From IMG/VR virus record IMGVR_UViG_2778261358_000013: a DNA stretch of 12,575 nucleotides. The stretch is one strand, 5' to 3'. This DNA comes from a virus (Duplodnaviria; Heunggongvirae; Uroviricota; Caudoviricetes). Below, in pieces: positions 191 through 12,575 of this stretch; the first letter of the stretch is position 1, and the number at the start of each line of letters is the position of its first letter. The notes below the pieces were generated by a model. The model was not told the origin of the DNA. It did not search any database and was given only the letters and a program-made list of their open reading frames with translations. The translations under genes were made by a program, and so were the position numbers.

Positions 191-442
191 ATGAGCGAAG
201 TAATCATGATTGTCTCTCCCGGCAAATGGGTATCCGAAGAGCAGTTAATTGCGCTGAAAGGAATAAAAAAAGGTACGTTAAAAAAGGCCCGGGAAAAATC
301 GTTTATGGAAGGAAGGGAATATAAGCATGTCGCTCATGACGGTATGCCATGGGATAACAGTCCATGCTTTTACAACCTGGAAGAAATTGATCGCTGGATT
401 GAGCGCCAGGCATCTGCAAGACCAAGACGTCATCTTGCTTGA
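191..442 (+). CDS. Putative excisionase / small DNA-binding protein (Xis-like)
   Basis: 83-aa ORF immediately upstream of and co-oriented with the integrase (stop 440-442, int ATG at 462 or 477). Small basic protein typical of prophage Xis-like genes. No strong SD before ATG 191; function is by position only. Confidence 0.5.
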   Translation: MSEVIMIVSPGKWVSEEQLIALKGIKKGTLKKAREKSFMEGREYKHVAHDGMPWDNSPCFYNLEEIDRWIERQASARPRRHLA

Positions 443-461
443 CTAAAAGCAACACGAACCA

Positions 462-1757
462 ATGAGAGAAGCTGAAATGAAATATCCGACAGGCGTGGAA
501 AACCATGGAGGGAAATTACGTATCTGGTTTGTTTATAAAGGTGTAAGAGTCCGGGAAAATCTTGGGGTTCCTGACACAGCAAAAAACAGGCGCATTGCAG
601 GTGAGCTACGCGCCTCTGTTTGTTACGCAATAAAAACTGGCGCTTTCGACTATGCAAAACAGTTTCCCGCCTCACACAATCTGGAAAAATTTGGTGAGGC
701 CCGACAAGATTTAACCATAAAAGAACTGGCTGAAAAATTTCTGGCACTGAAAGAAACTGAAGTCGCAAAAACGTCACTCAACACGTACCGTGCCGTCATC
801 AAAAATATTCTGAGCATAATCGGTGAAAAAAATCTTGCATCATCGATTAATAAAGAAAAATTGCTGGCGGTACGTAAAGAGTTACTGACTGGATACCAGA
901 TCCCCAAAAGTAACTATATTGTTACACAACCCGGGAGATCGGCTGTTACCGTAAATAATTACATGACAAATCTTTACGCCGTGTTCCAGTTTGGTGTTGA
1001 TAACGGTTATCTGGCAGACAATCCATTTAAGGGGATCTCACCATTAAAGGAGTCGAGAACCATCCCGGATCCACTTTCGCGGGAGGAGTTTATCCGCCTT
1101 ATTGACGCGTGCAGAAATCAGCAAGCCAAAAATTTATGGTGTGTTTCCGTTTATACTGGGATTCGCCCTGGTGAACTCTGTGCGCTTGGATGGGAAGATA
1201 TAGATCTGAAAAATGGAACAATGATAATCAGAAGAAATCTGGCAAAAGACCGTTTTACAGTACCAAAAACACAGGCGGGAACCAATCGTGTGATTCACCT
1301 TATTAAGCCCGCAATCGACGCTCTCCGGAGTCAGATGGCACTAACGAGACTGAGCAAAGAGCATATCATCGATGTTCACCTCAGAGAATTCGGCAGAACA
1401 GAGAAACAAAAATGTACCTTTGTTTTTCAACCTGAAGTGTCAGCGAAAGTAAAAAATTATGGTGACCATTTTACCGTTGACTCAATAAGGCAGATGTGGG
1501 ACGCAGCGGTAAAGCGTGCCGGAATCCGCCATCGCAAATCGTATCAGTCGAGACACACTTATGCCTGCTGGTCGTTAACAGCAGGAGCTAACCCGGCATT
1601 CATTGCAAACCAGATGGGCCATGCAGATGCGCAAATGGTGTTTCAGGTGTACGGGAAATGGATGTCAGAAAATAATAATGCGCAGGTAACGCTGTTAAAT
1701 ACACAGTTAAGCGAGTTTGCCCCAACCATGCCCCATAACGAAGCGATGAAAAGTTAA
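462..1757 (+). CDS. Phage tyrosine integrase (site-specific recombinase)
   Basis: 431-aa ORF. C-terminal catalytic region has the tyrosine-recombinase signature (..SRHTYACWSL..GAN..IANQMGHADAQMVFQVYGKW.. giving the R, H-x-x-R and Y residues). An alternative start at ATG 477 (MKYPTG...) is possible. Confidence 0.85.
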   Translation: MREAEMKYPTGVENHGGKLRIWFVYKGVRVRENLGVPDTAKNRRIAGELRASVCYAIKTGAFDYAKQFPASHNLEKFGEARQDLTIKELAEKFLALKETEVAKTSLNTYRAVIKNILSIIGEKNLASSINKEKLLAVRKELLTGYQIPKSNYIVTQPGRSAVTVNNYMTNLYAVFQFGVDNGYLADNPFKGISPLKESRTIPDPLSREEFIRLIDACRNQQAKNLWCVSVYTGIRPGELCALGWEDIDLKNGTMIIRRNLAKDRFTVPKTQAGTNRVIHLIKPAIDALRSQMALTRLSKEHIIDVHLREFGRTEKQKCTFVFQPEVSAKVKNYGDHFTVDSIRQMWDAAVKRAGIRHRKSYQSRHTYACWSLTAGANPAFIANQMGHADAQMVFQVYGKWMSENNNAQVTLLNTQLSEFAPTMPHNEAMKS

Positions 1758-2975: not shown

Positions 2976-4189
2976 TTACCAGTTCCACAGCGTGCCATCT
3001 TCCAGACGTGCGACTGGCAGATAAGCAGGTTCATAGGGATATTTCGCCGCCAGCTTTTCATCGAATTCGATGCCAAGACCCGGTTTGTCTCCCGGATGCA
3101 TATAGCCGTTATCGAAAGTCCAGTTGTGCGGGAAGACTTCGAGCATTTGTTCGGAATAACCCATGTACTCCTGGACACCGAAATTGGGGACCCACAGATC
3201 AAAGTGCAGCGCCGCAGCCATGCAGACTGGTGACAAATCGGAAGGACCGTGTGAGCCAGTACGTACCTGATACAGCGAAGCAAAATCGGCAATCCGGCGC
3301 ATACCGGTAATTCCGCCTGCATGGGTCAGCGTGGTGCGGATATAATCGATGAGTTGCTCTTCAATCAGTTGTTTGCAGTCCCAGATGCTGTTGAAGACTT
3401 CACCCACTGCGATGGGTGTGACGGTATGTTGGCGAATGAGACGGAAGCATTCCTGGTTTTCCGCAGGCGTCGGGTCTTCCATCCAGAACATGCGATAATC
3501 TTCAATGCTTTTACCAAAGCGCGCCGCTTCAATAGGCGTTAAGCGATGGTACATGTCATGCAGCAAATGTTCATTAAAACCAAACTTGTTACGTACCGCG
3601 TCAAACAATTTCGGCATGAAATCGAGGTATTTCTCCGTCGACCACAGCTGCTCTTCCGGCCACTGTCCTTTGGTTGCGGGTTCATAAGCCAGACCTTTAC
3701 CTTTCGACATGCCGTAGGTGGTTTTCATACCAGGGATTCCGCACTGCACGCGGATGGCTTTGAATCCCAGCTCCTGATGACGGGCATAATCATCCAGAGC
3801 TTCATCAATACTGTGACCGGTGGTATGGCAATAAACCATCACCCTTCACGAGACGCGCCGCCGAGTAACTGGTAAAGCGGCATGTTGGTAGCTTTGGCTT
3901 TAATATCCCACAGCGCCATATCAACCGCTGAAATGGCCGACATCGTAACCGGACCGCGACGCCAGTAAGCACCTTTATAGAAAAACTGCCAGATATCTTC
4001 GATACGGTGCGCATCGCGACCAATAAGCTGCGGACAAAGGTGATCCTGCAAATAAGAGGCCACGGAAAGCTCACGTCCATTGAGGGTGGCATCCCCAAGG
4101 CCCGTAATACCGTCCTCAGTGGTGATTTTTAATGTGACGAAATTACGCCCCGGACAGGTAACAAAAACTTCAGCCTTTACGATCTTCAT
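2976..4189 (-). pseudogene. rspA: rspA (enolase-superfamily mannonate-dehydratase-like starvation-sensing protein) interrupted by a 1-bp frameshift
   Basis: Two adjacent track ORFs (3839..4222 and 2976..3842) together read as RspA ([42 protein letters not shown]... then ...[27 protein letters not shown]...). The frame breaks at ..LLGGASREG|, where the plus strand has a ccc run at 3847-3849 and an intact gene would need one more C. Real start ATG 4187-4189 with SD AAGGA. Confidence 0.8.
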
Positions 4190-4394
4190 GTTCGATTCCT
4201 TGCATCGCTTGTCGTGATGCATGAAATCTACGCAACTGAGCTACTACCATACAAGTATAAAGATCGAAAAAAGCCGGAGTGATCACAAAAAAAGGCGTAT
4301 ATTTGCGCTGTGAATGGTTGACAAAAGATGAAATAGAATACCTTTTGTCAGCTGACACTTCCTCTTATCTTATTGATAAAATGGATTTATGTTC

Positions 4395-7116: not shown

Positions 7117-8526
7117 ATGTCCAAAAATGACCGAATGGTGGGCATCAGCCGCAGAACACTCGTTAAATCAACCGCGATAGGTTCTCTGGCGCTGGCTGCA
7201 GGCGGTTTTTCTTTACCGTTCACCCTGCGCAGTGCAGCGGCAACGGTACAACAGGCCAGCGAAAAAGTGATCTGGGGTGCCTGTTCCGTCAACTGTGGTA
7301 GCCGCTGTGCACTTCGTCTACATGTTAAAGATAATGAAGTGACCTGGGTGGAAACTGACAATACCGGCAGCGATGAGTACGGCAACCATCAGGTACGCGC
7401 CTGTTTGCGCGGTCGCTCCATCCGCCGGCGTATTAATCATCCCGATCGCTTGAATTACCCAATGAAACGCGTGGGTACACGCGGTGAAGGCAAATTCGAA
7501 CGGATTAGCTGGGATGAAGCCCTGGATACTATCGCCAGTAGCCTGAAAAAAACCGTCGAACAATATGGCAATGAGGCTGTATATATTCAGTACTCTTCGG
7601 GGATTGTTGGCGGCAATATGACCCGCTCTTCGCCATCAGCCTCGGCGGTCAAACGCCTGATGAACTGCTACGGCGGTTCACTCAATCAGTATGGCTCCTA
7701 CAGCACCGCGCAAATTTCCTGTGCCATGCCCTACACCTACGGCAGTAATGATGGCAACAGCACCACGGATATTGAAAACAGCAAGCTGGTCGTGATGTTT
7801 GGTAACAACCCGGCAGAAACCCGCATGAGCGGCGGTGGCATCACTTATCTTCTTGAAAAAGCGCGCGAGAAATCGAACGCCAAAATGATTGTTATCGATC
7901 CGCGATATACCGATACGGCTGCTGGTCGTGAAGATGAATGGCTCCCTATTCGCCCGGGCACCGATGCCGCGCTGGTTGCGGGTATTGCCTGGGTATTGAT
8001 TAACGAAAATCTCGTTGATCAACCTTTTCTCGATAAATACTGCGTCGGCTATGACGAAAAAACCTTACCCGCAGATGCACCCAAAAATGGTCACTATAAA
8101 GCCTATATTCTTGGTGAAGGTGATGATAACACAGCGAAAACGCCGCAGTGGGCTTCGCAAATTACCGGTATCCCGGTAGACCGTATCATCAAACTGGCGC
8201 GTGAAATTGGCACAGCAAAACCCGCTTATATCTGCCAGGGCTGGGGGCCGCAACGCCAGGCAAACGGCGAACTGACTGCACGCGCTATTGCTATGTTACC
8301 TATTTTGACGGGCAATGTCGGCATCAGCGGCGGAAATAGTGGCGCGCGTGAATCGACCTATACCATTACCATAGAACGCCTGCCGGTGCTGGATAATCCG
8401 GTCAAAACGTCAATCTCCTGCTTCAGCTGGACAGATGCTATCGATCATGGTCCGCAAATGACGGCAATCCGCGACGGCGTCCGCGGCAAAGATAAACTGG
8501 ATGTGCCCATTAAGTTCATCTGGAAC
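7117..8526 (+). pseudogene. ynfE: 5-prime portion (~470 codons) of ynfE, molybdopterin oxidoreductase / DMSO-reductase-family catalytic subunit, truncated by foreign DNA
   Basis: Tat signal (MSKNDRMVGISRRTLVKSTAIGSLALAAGG...AAA) and N-terminal Cys cluster (CSVNCGSRCALRLH) typical of DmsA/YnfE-type enzymes. The homologous reading ends at ...DVPIKFIWN (codon ending 8526). The track ORF then runs 22 unrelated codons (FKDLKRLLVRVTRDLSRPEVLH) to a stop at 8593-8595. Full-length proteins of this family are about 800 aa. Confidence 0.8.
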
Positions 8527-8787
8527 TTCAAGGACTTGAAGCGGTTACTCGTTAGAGTCACGAGAGACCTTAGTAGGCCTGAGGTCCTGCATTGAGTCAA
8601 GGACTTTGTGTCATTCTTTGTGCCAGACTTGTGTCATTAGACGGGATTTCTAGACGGCTGGTCAGGACCCCGGTGGCCTCGGTCTGGACTTGAGGCGGGG
8701 CTATGGGGGAAGTCTGCTGGCTTAATGTATTAGATGGTCATTCACATTTTTCTGTCAGAAACCATCGGTCCCACTGTGAGTCCAAAC
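8527..8787 (-). repeat. Non-coding terminal-repeat-like region of the foreign segment, with T7-group-like end motifs on the minus strand
   Basis: No ORF longer than 15 codons on the minus strand. Minus strand carries CTCACAGTG-G-GACC (8767-8780) and TTCCCCCATAG (8701-8711), resembling the first ~35 nt of the T7 terminal repeat (TCTCACAGTGTACGGACCTAAAGTTCCCCCATAGGGGG, from memory). Short direct repeats tcaaggactt (8528, 8596) and gactt(t)gtgtcatt (8600, 8618). Confidence 0.4.
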
Positions 8788-8943
8788 CTAAGCTCCCAGA
8801 AGCCCACCCACAGCCTTAGACAGAGTGTCGAATACATTCACACCGAGTCGACCGGAGAGGACCATATAGAGACCCACAGAGAGGAACACGAGTTTATAGA
8901 CCAGAGTCAGGAGGGACCTTAGGTCTGCGGAAGTCATGGACAT
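8788..8943 (-). CDS. Small single-pass membrane protein (51 aa), hypothetical
   Basis: Hand-translated ORF below the track size cutoff: MSMTSADLRSLLTLVYKLVFLSVGLYMVLSGRLGVNVFDTLSKAVGGLLGA. Strong SD AGGAGG (complement of 8949-8954) 4 nt upstream of ATG 8941-8943. One hydrophobic helix (LLTLVYKLVFLSVGLYMVL). Last ORF before the terminal non-coding region. Confidence 0.45.
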   Translation of the reverse strand: MSMTSADLRSLLTLVYKLVFLSVGLYMVLSGRLGVNVFDTLSKAVGGLLGA

Positions 8944-8996
8944 AAAGCCTCCTTCGTCTATTGTACTACTGCACTAGATAACTAGTACAAAACAAA

Positions 8997-9021
8997 GGTC
9001 CAGACCATTGGTCCAGACCAT
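8997..9021. repeat. Tandem direct repeat 2 x ggtccagaccat (period 13)
   Basis: 8997-9008 and 9010-9021 are identical 12-mers separated by one T, in a 238-bp non-coding gap (8944-9181). Each copy contains the GGTC-NN-GACC palindrome. Confidence 0.6.
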
Positions 9022-9181
9022 AGTTATCATGATGATTGGAACGATTGAACGGTAGGCACTTTACATCTCACCCACTGTTCAGCTTCAGCCAGTGACCAGC
9101 ATAGCCGCTTATAGACTCTGCGTGTCATCCAGATTGTTGCTTGATATCGTCCACCCTCCACAGGCTGTATAGATGTCTTAA

Positions 9182-9421
9182 TCACAGTGACAGGCCACCA
9201 CCTGAAGTCCTGCTGATATTCAGTCCAGACTTACCCCTGCTCATGGTCTTACCTCCCTCGGTCTCATGACCTTGGGTATCGACTACAGCTTGCTGAGCGT
9301 CATCTGGAGGAGCTACAGGAGGAGCTACAGGAGGCGGGACCGAAGCCCCACCTTGAGTCCCACCACCACCTGTCAGGCCCTTGGCGATGGACCTGAAGCC
9401 TTTACTAATGCTCTTACCCAT
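9182..9421 (-). CDS. Hypothetical Gly/Pro/Ala-rich small protein (79 aa), probably disordered
   Basis: ORF begins 5 nt after the stop of the upstream 328-aa gene, with no separate SD (possible translational coupling). Contains GGGGTQGG and PPPVAPPVAPP, the latter encoded by a 12-bp tandem repeat. Low-complexity, so the coding call is tentative. Confidence 0.35.
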   Translation of the reverse strand: MGKSISKGFRSIAKGLTGGGGTQGGASVPPPVAPPVAPPDDAQQAVVDTQGHETEGGKTMSRGKSGLNISRTSGGGLSL

Positions 9422-9426
9422 TGGTC

Positions 9427-10413
9427 TTACGCTTCGGTCTTGGTGAACTTCAGGCGTTTGACTACAGGCAGGACGGCAGTAGCTGAGCCAGTGCCCATCT
9501 TGATGGTCGTAGCAGCTTCAGCGACAACGAACACTTTACCGAGGATTTCCAGAGAGTGAGACTGAGAGTCGCCATCACGTGAAAGGATGACCGTAATATT
9601 CTCGCCATCGTGACGGAAGCAACCGAAGCTAAGAGCCGTAAAACGCTTAGCCATCATGAACACGCCACGGTCTTCACCGTTGTAATACGCAATATCCGTC
9701 CCCAGCATATCGACGATAGCGTCTTCACCACCGAAGCCCTGCTTAGCAGCCAGACGGGAGAGAGCCTTGAGGTGTGACTCATGGGCGATGATACCGTAAT
9801 CAGTAACCTCAGAACCGAAAGAAGATTCGGTGTTGTCATACAGAGCATCCATGATAGCATCTGCCTTAGCGGTCAGGCTGCCAGTCAGGACCGGAAGCTC
9901 TACGGTCTTCAACAGTTTGGAGGACTCCAGAACGTCGACCATGCGAGCGTTGATGGTACGGACCACATTCTCACAGATGTTCATAGCATCCTGCTGAAGT
10001 GTGCCCTGAGTGAATCCGGTGGATGACTTGGCGTCCCAGAGCTTGGTCTGCTCAGAGATGAGAATAGCCCGCTCGATTGGTTCGACCACGATTTCTTGTC
10101 CAGACGGAACGGTCACGACTTCAGGTCGCTTACCACCACGGACAGGAACAACCACAGAGCGGTTAGCCAGAGTGTGAGCAATGATTGGAGTAGGCAGGCT
10201 ATTGCGGGTAGGCAGGACTTCTACAGGGAACGGGATGTTCTCCTGAGCGGATTTCAGAACACCATTCAGCATTGTCTTAACCAGTTTAGCCAGCTCAAAG
10301 GCGTAGACCTGAGGGTCTGCGTTAGTTGGCAATCCTTCGTTAATCTGAATGTTGTCGGTGTCGGTGATACGTACTGGCTCAATGCCGAACTGTAAAGCGT
10401 CTTTAATCGTCAT
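9427..10413 (-). CDS. Hypothetical protein (328 aa), function unknown
   Basis: Long ORF. The track start at 10422 is a TTG; the likely start is ATG 10411-10413 (MTIKDALQFG...) with SD AGGAGA 9 nt upstream. No catalytic or nucleotide-binding motif recognised by eye. Confidence 0.7.
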   Translation of the reverse strand: MTIKDALQFGIEPVRITDTDNIQINEGLPTNADPQVYAFELAKLVKTMLNGVLKSAQENIPFPVEVLPTRNSLPTPIIAHTLANRSVVVPVRGGKRPEVVTVPSGQEIVVEPIERAILISEQTKLWDAKSSTGFTQGTLQQDAMNICENVVRTINARMVDVLESSKLLKTVELPVLTGSLTAKADAIMDALYDNTESSFGSEVTDYGIIAHESHLKALSRLAAKQGFGGEDAIVDMLGTDIAYYNGEDRGVFMMAKRFTALSFGCFRHDGENITVILSRDGDSQSHSLEILGKVFVVAEAATTIKMGTGSATAVLPVVKRLKFTKTEA

Positions 10414-10488
10414 AATAATCAATCTCCTGAATTAGTTTGGATACTGTGGGTCCCGACATCAGGTCAGGACCACTTGTGTGTCTGTGTC

Positions 10489-10980
10489 TTAGAGGCTGTC
10501 CATCCAGTTGTCCGTGGACTCAATGTCAGCGACCATAGAAGCACGGGAGCGCCCAGCGGAATGGGTAGCACTGCGGAGGTGCTCACCATAGGTCCGGCGT
10601 TCAGCTTTGACCTGTTCACGGCGCTGTAGCTCTTTCTGCCACTCTGCATCAGTCATGTTCTCTTCACGCATACGCTCAGCCTGAATGCGCTGCTCTTTAG
10701 CAATACGCTCAGCTTCGGCTCGCTTGTTCTGCTGGCGGCGACCATAGGCGGTCATCAGGTCATTACTGAAGAAGTTACCAATGGTCACGCCAGCTTCAGC
10801 CAGAGCTTCCAGTAACTCCATTGCCTCGCGGCTGGTAGACGGCAGGCCTGACAGGTAGCCCGGAATGAGGGTCTTGATAGCGAGCGACAGCGGATAGGGC
10901 TGACCATCCAGACTCACAGTATTCTCGTAGAGATTGATGTCGGTGACTGACAGTTTCCAGTCTTGGTTATTGAATAACAT
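10489..10980 (-). CDS. Hypothetical protein (163 aa) with charged Arg/Glu/Gln-rich predicted helical segment
   Basis: SD AGGAG 8 nt upstream of ATG 10978-10980. Central segment QQNKRAEAERIAKEQRIQAERMREENMTDAEWQKELQRREQVKAERR is typical of a coiled coil or single alpha-helix domain. Confidence 0.65.
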   Translation of the reverse strand: MLFNNQDWKLSVTDINLYENTVSLDGQPYPLSLAIKTLIPGYLSGLPSTSREAMELLEALAEAGVTIGNFFSNDLMTAYGRRQQNKRAEAERIAKEQRIQAERMREENMTDAEWQKELQRREQVKAERRTYGEHLRSATHSAGRSRASMVADIESTDNWMDSL

Positions 10981-11079
10981 AGTAATTACTCCTCTTGAGA
11001 GTTGAGACTATCGGTCAACCACAGGCGTGTTCAGTCCTGCGGCGTCTCCCCGCATCGGTCATCTCAAAAGGTGTTTAAA

Positions 11080-11262
11080 TTAGGCAGACAGTTTCATAGA
11101 GACCAGTTGCGCTATTAGCTCGTCTCGTGATTGGTGCTGGCGGGTCTCATCTTCTGGGTCCAGACCTAGCTCCTTCAGGATGACTTCAGTCCGGTAGCCA
11201 CGGTAACGGAGAGTCATGCGACCCTCAGGTGTGCGTGGGTCGATATGTTGTTTAGTTGTCAT
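11080..11262 (-). CDS. Hypothetical small protein (60 aa)
   Basis: ATG 11260-11262 lies 2 nt after the TAA stop of the upstream 84-aa gene, with SD GAGGA 9 nt upstream. Same strand and codon style as its neighbours. Confidence 0.5.
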   Translation of the reverse strand: MTTKQHIDPRTPEGRMTLRYRGYRTEVILKELGLDPEDETRQHQSRDELIAQLVSMKLSA

Positions 11263-11264
11263 TG

Positions 11265-11519
11265 TTAGAAGTCCTCGTTAGACCAATCATCCACGTCAAA
11301 TTCACTGGTGATAGGTGCTTGGAAGTTAGGTAGACCCTCTGGTATCTCTAGAGGCAGTCGCTCGTCGATTCTCAGTGCCATCTCTTCGTATATATGCCGA
11401 AGCAGAGAAGTCAGTAAGATAGGGTCCACAGGATGCTCAGGGCCGTGTCTCTCAATGAAGCACATGGTTGTCGCTATTGACTCCATAATCAGTTCATCAG
11501 TGAGTCGCTTAGAACCCAT
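11265..11519 (-). CDS. Strongly acidic small protein (84 aa) with acidic C-terminal tail ending in Phe (...EFDVDDWSNEDF)
   Basis: The track ORF is 101 aa from ATG 11570, but the likely start is ATG 11517-11519 (MGSKRLTDELIMES...), which overlaps the last codons of the upstream 281-aa gene (sequence ctATGGGTTCTAAgcg; stop at 11509-11511) as in translational coupling. About 18 Asp/Glu against 6 Lys/Arg. Confidence 0.55.
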   Translation of the reverse strand: MGSKRLTDELIMESIATTMCFIERHGPEHPVDPILLTSLLRHIYEEMALRIDERLPLEIPEGLPNFQAPITSEFDVDDWSNEDF

Positions 11520-12354
11520 AGTCGGACCCCTTGCCCGCTGCTGCTTTCTGGGACTTTGTAGCCTTACCATTCAGGTGAGAATCCACCAGACGACGGACAA
11601 CCTTGATATTGGATGTGCGCATGTCATGAGCGATATCCTTCCAGTTATCCTTCAGCCAGTCATAACCCTTGCGTAGAATCTTGATGGTAGGCTCTTTGTC
11701 GTTAGGCTGTGGCTGTAGACGATAGTAGCCGTTGATCTCACCTTTCTTATTGAAGATGGCTCGTGGACGTCCGGTCGATAGGTCTATAGCCGTAATGCCA
11801 AACTCAGTAACACGCTTGGTGTAGAATGGGTTAGGACGACACAGGGTCTTCAGATATCCAGTCAGGACGCTAGCTGTCAGCAGCTTAGAGCTGGTCAACT
11901 TAAGGTCCAGAGCTTTAATAACCTCGGTAGGCGTGGCTCCTGACTTGGAGTCCAGCTTGGAGTCGAGGACGATAGCACCGGGCGCATAGCTGATAGCTTT
12001 AGTCTGTGCAACCTGAAGTTTCTGGGCCTGAAGTTCGAGGACCTCTTGCTCCTTCTGGCGAATATAGGCTAGGACCTTACGACGCACAGCTTTAGACTCA
12101 CGCATCCCGACTAGTAGAAGCTGGTCAGTGTTGAGGGTATAGCTTTTAACGTCCTTCCCGAAGCTTACGAAAATTTCGTAGGTCACATTTTGACCTTCCA
12201 GCTCATCCTCAATACGGGACACAAAGTCGTTATTACGGACAGGCTTCTCCCCCGCTTCTTCACGAGCCGGATTAATAACCTTGGTTAGAAAATCGTGGGA
12301 GGTCATAGACACAAGCTGGTCGAGGTTAATGATGCTAATTTCTTTGGATGACAT
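11509..12354 (-). CDS. Hypothetical protein (281 aa), function unknown
   Basis: Long ORF with SD AAGGAG 9 nt upstream of ATG 12352-12354. Lys/Arg-rich C-terminus. No motif recognised by eye. First gene of the minus-strand run visible in the window. Confidence 0.7.
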   Translation of the reverse strand: MSSKEISIINLDQLVSMTSHDFLTKVINPAREEAGEKPVRNNDFVSRIEDELEGQNVTYEIFVSFGKDVKSYTLNTDQLLLVGMRESKAVRRKVLAYIRQKEQEVLELQAQKLQVAQTKAISYAPGAIVLDSKLDSKSGATPTEVIKALDLKLTSSKLLTASVLTGYLKTLCRPNPFYTKRVTEFGITAIDLSTGRPRAIFNKKGEINGYYRLQPQPNDKEPTIKILRKGYDWLKDNWKDIAHDMRTSNIKVVRRLVDSHLNGKATKSQKAAAGKGSDYGF

Positions 12355-12496
12355 ATCGTTGTACTCCTTTTGTTATGCCTCCTGAAGTCACACCCTGAAA
12401 GCCTACTCAAGCCCCCAACGATAGGGAGACTCACAGGCAACAGGAGACATACAGAAAGACTTGAGGTAATAAGGTCGTGTGAAGACCATAGTTGAT

Positions 12497-12534
12497 AAGT
12501 AAGCGTCAACGGAGCACCGTATTGACGCTTATTT
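12497..12534. promoter_or_regulatory. Strong inverted repeat / stem-loop upstream of the 281-aa gene (candidate processing site, terminator or operator)
   Basis: Perfect 10-bp inverted repeat taagcgtcaa (12500-12509) / ttgacgctta (12522-12531) around a 12-nt centre that itself pairs cgg/ccg. Flanked by aataaataa on one side. Lies ~150 bp upstream of the 281-aa start. Confidence 0.4.
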
Positions 12535-12575
12535 ATTAGTGAGTACTACGTTCCATGGCAGGAGTTCGTCAACTC

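Follow-up and report, generated by a model that had tools for sequence, protein, structure and literature searches.

A 12,575-nt stretch of the virus record IMGVR_UViG_2778261358_000013 (Caudoviricetes; IMG/VR), referred to in full as the window, was analysed, and its positions 8517 to ~8700 were assigned, with a probability of roughly 0.85, as the left attachment site (attL) of a 6.5–6.8-kb integrative element put into the reductase gene ynfE by a tyrosine integrase. The integrase and the opposite end of the element (attR) were read in relatives only, as the window ends before them. A first-pass annotation of the window had pointed to a 16-bp palindrome and closely packed direct repeats in this region, and had named recombinase, transposase and packaging recognition sites as options; the recombinase option stood, on the evidence for an integrase attL, whereas a transposase did not fit the one fixed site and packaging did not fit a related element, L024, that lacks the repeats. 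The feature is the attL of a known, catalogued kind of integrative element, and represents ordinary biology in an element that has been little studied; 7–8-kb ynfE-disrupting integrative elements, Eco892.7.ynfE and Sfl13.8.ynfE, are listed in the TIGER survey (Mageeney et al. 2020, PMC7192596).

Junction, empty site and distribution of the insertion

The open reading frame (ORF) of the ynfE fragment in the window continues into the element and reaches a stop at 8595 (ORF list and translation), and in relatives the truncated gene is labelled 'incomplete; missing C-terminus' in RefSeq. The 161 bases ending at 8540 gave matches in 5281 E. coli genomes, intact ynfE being aligned only up to 8527. 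Unoccupied ynfE reads CATCTGGAACTACgcggg, without the palindrome; in strain TG1 the unoccupied site is CCCATTAAGTTCATCTGGAACTACGCGGGAAAT, also given as ...AAGTTCATCTGGAACTACGCGGG, and AAGTTCATCTGGAACTACGCGGG is the bacterial attachment site (attB) expected after precise excision. The two halves of ynfE lie 6.5–6.8 kb apart in TUM12357, UMNK88, EC21Z-137 and other strains (7.7 kb with an insertion sequence), and every complete relative carries a 'site-specific integrase' gene at the far end of the insert.

Of 5426 complete E. coli genomes, 154 carried a 48-base junction sequence, each of them only once and on the chromosome; the other genomes were intact, and in 111 of the 154 the sequence was identical to that of the window. 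The insertion was also found in the ynfE orthologues of five other genera (Citrobacter, Kluyvera, Leclercia, Enterobacter and Shigella). As expected of an attachment site, the locus has a recombinase gene at one end in the relatives, a sequence common to both junctions and to the empty site, and coexisting occupied and empty alleles. Three IMG/VR matches to the arm were integrated copies. The 6–7-kb contigs L024, L025, L026, L030 and L031 were considered as circular forms and rejected, all of them being integrated with host flanks.

Direct repeats border the element and some motifs are inverted between its two ends, which could also describe a transposon whose end repeats bind a transposase and whose 11–13-bp direct repeat is a target-site duplication. 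This is highly improbable, since the insertion point is identical in the 154 E. coli genomes and the five other genera, the empty site already has the supposed duplication, once, and the attachment site of the element itself (attP) includes it, the tyrosine integrase is the only recombinase, with no transposase belonging to the element, and the tips are without terminal inverted repeats.

Core site, crossover and palindrome

The two junctions share an 11-bp core (Table 1), attL reading AAGTT-CATCTGGAACT-TCAAGG and attR reading GAGTC-CATCTGGAACT-ACGCGG. In the junction comparison of seven distinct elements, 8528 was T in attL, as in the element, and A in attR, as in the host; at 8516, attL had the T of the host and attR, for the most part, the C of the element. 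Because both positions sort in this way into a host and an element side, strand exchange is, as far as sequence comparison can place it, confined to CATCTGGAACT at 8517–8527, to the left of the palindrome. The core falls within a dyad whose host-side half-site B (CCATTAAGTTC) occupies 8507–8517 and whose element-side half-site C' (GAACTTCAAGG) occupies 8523–8533, and all four half-sites (C, B, C' and B') terminate in AGTYC. Our best guess for the 7-bp overlap is CATCTGG, at 8517–8523, which is favoured because it is consistent both with the dyad and with the start of identity.

The palindrome CTTCAAG-GA-CTTGAAG was exact at 8526–8541, as first annotated. It had also been described as straddling the end of ynfE homology, which is correct insofar as homology ends at 8527, inside the palindrome; it is not, however, the crossover point, the exchange lying to its left. 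Since the match to intact ynfE ends at 8527, the palindrome overlaps the native gene by 2 bases (3 where 8528 is A). Read on the minus strand from 8541 to 8523, the region consists of TTCAAGTCC and then TTGAAGTTC in tandem; the inner unit, TTGAAGTTC, is the element-side core half-site, and the outer unit, TTCAAGTCC, is one copy of the motif GGACTTGARG.

Perfect 7-bp inverted repeats with a spacer of 0–10 bp are common, 11 being present in the window compared with 8.7 ± 3 in shuffles, and a given point would have one within 15 bp on either side by chance in about 2% of cases. Conservation is stronger evidence than either these counts or those of the repeat triplet described below: the palindrome did not vary among the 19 distinct attL sequences, diverged copies from Kluyvera and metagenomes among them, except for T or A at 8528. 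Among the E. coli copies it was perfect in 111 of 154, and about a quarter had the imperfect form CTACAAG. The probability that the feature is chance, native ynfE sequence or the terminator of the truncated gene is virtually nil. The native and chance readings are refuted by the comparison with the empty site that the first-pass annotation had proposed, in which intact ynfE (TG1) was without the palindrome, and conservation across genera argues against them as well; as for a terminator, the scan called none at the palindrome, whose hairpin is weak (−4.4 kcal/mol) and has no U-tract.

Arm repeats, spacing and the integrase

The direct repeats described earlier are real, and three of the four coordinates given for them were wrong, by 1, 2 and 8 bases. 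TCAAGGACTT occurs twice, at 8528–8537 as annotated and at 8597–8606 rather than 8596–8605, and the pair written as gactt(t)gtgtcatt consists of GACTTTGTGTCATT at 8602–8615 (not 8600–8613) and GACTTGTGTCATT at 8626–8638 (not 8618–8630); a degenerate middle unit, TTCTTTGTGCCA at 8614–8625, had been overlooked. The resulting tandem units share the motif TTGTGYCA, which has only three matches in the 12.6-kb window, all on one strand and within 31 bp. None of 500 shuffles placed even two such motifs within 35 bp, and the triplet is not due to chance.

In five complete elements, TTGTG[TC]CA occurred exactly five times per element on one strand, at +64, +76 and +87 and, beside the integrase gene, at −179 and −168. 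The opposite terminus, where a search for the same repeats had been advised, carries them in 10 distinct relatives (TTGTGTCA twice, GCRTTGAGTCAA, TTCAAGTCC and GGACTTGAGG). The number of 8-mers common to both arms was 37, compared with 1.6 in shuffles (maximum 10) and 1–3 in control segments, and what the arms share comprises, among other things, a 20-base identity, GCRTTGAGTCAA near ±50 and an inverted AGGTCCTG. The integrase-side copy of AGGTCCTG sits in TATCAGGACCTTA, one mismatch off the integration host factor (IHF) consensus; a scan with this consensus found no site within one mismatch in the window's arm, and only TATCAGGACCTTA in the integrase-side arm. GGACTTGARG is present in four copies over both arms, those of the integrase-side arm being at −159 (+ strand) and −36 (inverted). 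GCATTGAGTCAA was invariant in the diverged copies L006 and L026, and among the diverged copies from Kluyvera and metagenomes no change was seen in the core and palindrome, AGGTC, TTGAGTCAA and the TGTGYCAG repeats, while the sequence between them varied.

Among the 19 distinct attL sequences, the first arm motif lay 52, 62 or 73 bp from the core and at no other distance. These spacings are produced by three unrelated insertions of 10, 21 and 21 bp, which leave the arm sites roughly in phase with the core on the helix. The spacer insertions amount to a natural experiment, and suggest that the arm sites must keep this phase. The same spacer was hit by 21, 21 and 10 bp in the window, in L028 (from 5502) and in L006, respectively, with small hairpins in at least two of these; in L026, a block of the window type is placed after the repeats instead.

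Repeats and integrase covary in relatives that occupy a different site. L024 (Logan ERR10768130, 6794 bp) contains an element of ~6.1 kb inserted in tRNA-Gly glyU, at the 3' end of this gene, and a second glyU element, of 4.35 kb and with the same repeat pattern, is present in L030 (Hadza gut metagenome, 6651 bp). The structural genes of L024 are 88% identical and its integrase, of the same architecture, is 31% identical. TTGTGYCA is absent from the L024 element, which has TGGTTACA exactly three times, once in one arm and twice in tandem, at 12-bp spacing, in the other, and this 2 + 1 arrangement without TTGTGYCA is common to both glyU-type elements. Integrase-attachment cassettes appear to have been exchanged between ynfE- and glyU-type elements. 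The attachment site does not include the non-coding block that begins at 8698, since this block is conserved in L024, which has a different integrase and attachment module.

Tandem repeats in a long non-coding stretch (8541–9180) of an element with virion-like genes might also be read as packaging (pac/cos) signals or as replication-origin iterons. Such a role is very unlikely, because L024 keeps the structural genes, lacks TTGTGYCA and has repeats of its own that go with its own integrase, because copies of the motif stand in both arms, at set distances from the core that keep helical phase, and because no terminase or replication-initiator gene was recognised among the element proteins.

A further alternative concerns the palindrome alone, which might be a dyad operator recognised by an accessory protein that acts as a dimer (for example an excision factor, or a protein that regulates the element) and not a half-site next to a motif copy. 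Its perfect form in most E. coli copies and its constancy in diverged relatives speak for this, as do the fourfold presence of GGACTTGARG in attP and a similar palindrome, TCAAGACTTGA, in an arm of L024, which has a different integrase and core. Set against these points, the symmetry is broken by an A at the third base in about a quarter of copies, none of the other three GGACTTGARG copies forms a palindrome, the left arm of the palindrome overlaps the AGTYC core half-site needed by the dyad at 8507–8533, and TCAAGACTTGA, being a single copy, could be due to chance. An operator is a minority possibility, and is compatible with the attL assignment, not exclusive of it.

For the attL of an integrase-borne element, a mechanism can be proposed by analogy with phage lambda. 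Bound at the AGTYC half-sites, the C-terminal domains of the integrase would exchange strands over CATCTGG, and its N-terminal domain would bind the TTGTGYCA units, which on this analogy are most likely its arm-type sites. GCRTTGAGTCAA, AGGTCCTG and GGACTTGARG may be sites for accessory or DNA-bending proteins or for more integrase subunits, and the bound proteins would bring the arms back to the core in the manner of the lambda intasome. Integration truncates ynfE, and precise excision would restore it. We infer both the assignment of motifs to proteins and the exact positions of cleavage.

As in lambda-type arms, repeats unlike the core are present in both arms and change with the integrase. 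The element is also like lambda attP and Int in that its core is short and matches attB exactly, with what look like inverted core-type half-sites on either side of a probable 7-bp overlap, and in having three tandem repeats at 11–12-bp spacing ~64–90 bp from the core with two in the other arm (a 3 + 2 arrangement that resembles the lambda P'1–P'3 and P1–P2 sites), further shared motifs that could take accessory or bending proteins, and helically phased core-to-arm spacing. Unlike lambda, whose Int has 356 aa, it encodes an integrase of 526–548 aa with a long helical linker and an N-terminus without a match among known arm-binding families, DUF6538 being the only match there in relatives; its motif sequences are unrelated, its integrase-side repeats lie within the annotated integrase ORF, and its target is the middle of a protein-coding gene that is not restored by insertion.

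The integrase matches Pfam Phage_integrase (PF00589) and PHROG 1, and an NCBIfam search gave a match to the catalytic part only. A fold search with the integrase model aligned only the core-binding and catalytic domains, which resemble those of Tn1549 integrase, XerA, lambda integrase and Cre. Residues 52–104 were modelled with moderate confidence (pLDDT about 65–73) as three beta strands followed by a helix, and relatives match Pfam DUF6538 at this N-terminal position; the first ~45 residues (L003 12360–12491, with an equivalent in all ynfE-type elements) are predicted to be disordered and vary in length, and the DNA that encodes them also contains the integrase-side TTGTGTCA repeats. The model supports a lambda-like mechanism only partly. 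No alternative start codon was seen for the integrase of L001, so the arm sites apparently lie inside the coding sequence; in the glyU-type elements, the equivalent arm site is upstream of the integrase gene. No study was found on DNA recognition by this integrase family (about 540 aa, DUF6538-like N-terminus).

Several points weigh against the attL assignment or the mechanism built on it. The window is without integrase and attR, and an insertion sequence breaks the element at ~12494; the copy in the window may still be active or, given this insertion sequence, may be immobile. The predicted attP junction GGAGTYCATCTGGAACTWCAAGGACTTGAAG (also written GGAGTCCATCTGGAACTTCAAGGACTTGAAG) was absent from IMG/VR and JGI metagenome contigs. 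The limits of the crossover at 8517–8527 depend, in the sequences compared, on the majority pattern at 8516 and 8528, and four elements have A at 8528 on both sides and two have T at 8516 on both sides. The N-terminal domain of the integrase gave no Pfam match, none to the arm-binding (Arm-DNA-bind) families in particular, and no match to PDB sequences, the position of the integrase-side TTGTGTCA copies inside the annotated ORF (codons 32–39) is unusual, and it is by analogy that TTGTGYCA is given to the integrase and not to an excision factor.

Table 1. Features of the ynfE junction, the element arm and the cargo genes, in window coordinates.
Feature	Position	Strand	Basis or remark
ynfE 5' fragment, dimethyl sulfoxide (DMSO)/selenate-family reductase A subunit	7117–8527	+	ORF list, translation, homology end
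Core dyad CCATTAAGTTC-ATCTG-GAACTTCAAGG	8507–8533		repeat search, 9/11 complementary, centre 8520
Common core CATCTGGAACT	8517–8527		identical in attL, attR and attB
Palindrome CTTCAAG-GA-CTTGAAG	8526–8541		outer part of C' and neighbouring GGACTTGAAG copy
GGACTTGARG copy 1, GGACTTGAAGCGG	8532–8544	+	repeat search
Spacer insertion TTACTCGTTAGAGTCACGAGAG	8545–8566		net +21 bp, CTCGT/ACGAG hairpin; most family members without it (attL alignment)
AGGTCCTG	8582–8589	+	inverted copy in integrase-side arm; 8-mer CAGGACCT at −65 vs +42
GCATTGAGTCAA	8589–8600	+	once per arm, ~50 bp from core in elements without spacer insertion
Three tandem ~12-bp units GACTTTGTGTCA, TTCTTTGTGCCA, GACTTGTGTCAtt with TTGTGYCA	8602–8638	+	spaced 12 and 11 bp; candidate arm-type sites
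GGACTTGARG copy 2, GGACTTGAGGCGG	8686–8698	+	+146 in attP (motif 8686–8695); outermost arm element recognised
Conserved non-coding block	8698–8767		83% identical in L024
Terminator-like hairpin closing minus-strand operon	8997–9019	−	terminator scan
Cargo block	9182–12354	−	includes 60-aa and 101-aa ORFs
79-aa T7 gp7.3-like protein	9182–9421	−	PHROG 1320, 3e-11
331-aa orphan protein, looks virion-related	9427–10422	−	remote relatives
163-aa protein	10489–10980	−	ORF list
281-aa protein, related to anti-repressor (Ant) PHROG families	11509–12354	−	PHROG match
Insertion-sequence end interrupting element	12494–12575		window stops short of integrase and attR

Cargo, related systems and biological meaning

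The cargo genes are all on the minus strand (Table 1). The 79-aa protein aligned with the C-terminus of T7 gp7.3, which is needed for virion infectivity, at 34% identity over 56 aa (E = 4e-6), and this sequence similarity hints at a link to T7-like phages. The 331-aa protein belongs to a group of only 64 clusters among 1.8 billion representative proteins, and its rare remote relatives have C-terminal immunoglobulin-like (Ig-like) domains (Big_2, He_PIG) typical of virion surface proteins; its AlphaFold model (pLDDT 44) was too poor for a fold search. No similarity was found between the 331-aa protein and the T7 capsid protein gp10 by profile comparison, or between the 163-aa protein and the T7 scaffold protein gp9. 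Relatives have KilA-N or Rha regulators at the position of the 281-aa protein (RefSeq annotation). A tblastn search of the 331-aa and 79-aa proteins against phages gave no matches, and element DNA matched phage records only via the insertion-sequence end. No primase, AlpA, terminase or replication genes were recognised among the element proteins, and a search of 8400–9500 against Rfam gave no match. ATAGGGAGACC-like motifs were considered as promoters for a T7-type phage RNA polymerase and dropped, since they are antisense to all element genes. Several other genomes have relatives of the element that are broken by IS3-family copies, and similarity to the window ends near 12494.

A satellite lifestyle is plausible. 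The element is like PICI, PICMI, marine VEIME and P4-like satellites in its size (4–7 kb), in its integrase at one end, in its anti-repressor, KilA-N and Rha regulators, and in having few virion-related genes and no full phage set. It is unlike them in that it has no recognised primase, AlpA or terminase-small-subunit hallmarks and no known helper phage, and no encapsidated or circular form of it was found. A broader proposal, which we regard as speculative and rather doubtful, is that the element represents an uncharacterised family of minimal (4–7 kb) Enterobacteriaceae phage satellites with swappable ynfE/glyU integrase-attachment cassettes, which would exploit virulent T7-like phages by means of their virion-like and gp7.3-like proteins and would turn ynfE off and on by integration and excision.

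Two neighbouring features of the window are separate from the element. An excisionase (DUF1233) at 191–442 (+) and a 431-aa tyrosine integrase with Arm-DNA-bind_2 at 462–1757 (+) mark the end of a second, unrelated prophage by rspB, whose own attachment site is expected at ~1757–1945. The gene rspA is split at ~3842 (ORFs 2976–3842 and 3839–4222, minus strand) by a 1-bp deletion relative to UMNK88, which is either a pseudogene or a sequencing error.

The TIGER elements Eco892.7.ynfE and Sfl13.8.ynfE agree with the element described here in the disruption of the ynfE Molybdopterin domain, in size and in host genera, the match being at the level of gene and domain, and that survey lists them as a candidate for 'regulated gene integrity' (PMC7192596). 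The survey gives coordinates and a gene-disruption test, and in the portions of its text and supplement that were available no dissection of core, arm repeats, spacing or cargo was found. Among gene-splitting elements that restore their gene on excision, it cites the comK, sigK and spsM cases (PMC7192596). Like these, the ynfE element interrupts an ORF without supplying a replacement end, and precise excision would rebuild the gene; unlike them, it shows no sign of regulated or programmed excision. Loss of ynfE may be tolerated, given the neighbouring paralogue ynfF.

The insertion accounts for the ynfE pseudogene in ~3% of complete E. coli genomes and provides exact boundaries for annotating the insert. 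What is added is modest: a complete, testable map of the attachment site, in which the core and a probable 7-bp overlap are placed together with the five arm repeats and three more motifs that the arms share. The wider interest lies in the cargo of the element and in whether excision restores ynfE. If the satellite and switch proposal were true, 8517–8700 would be the working hinge of a ynfE switch.

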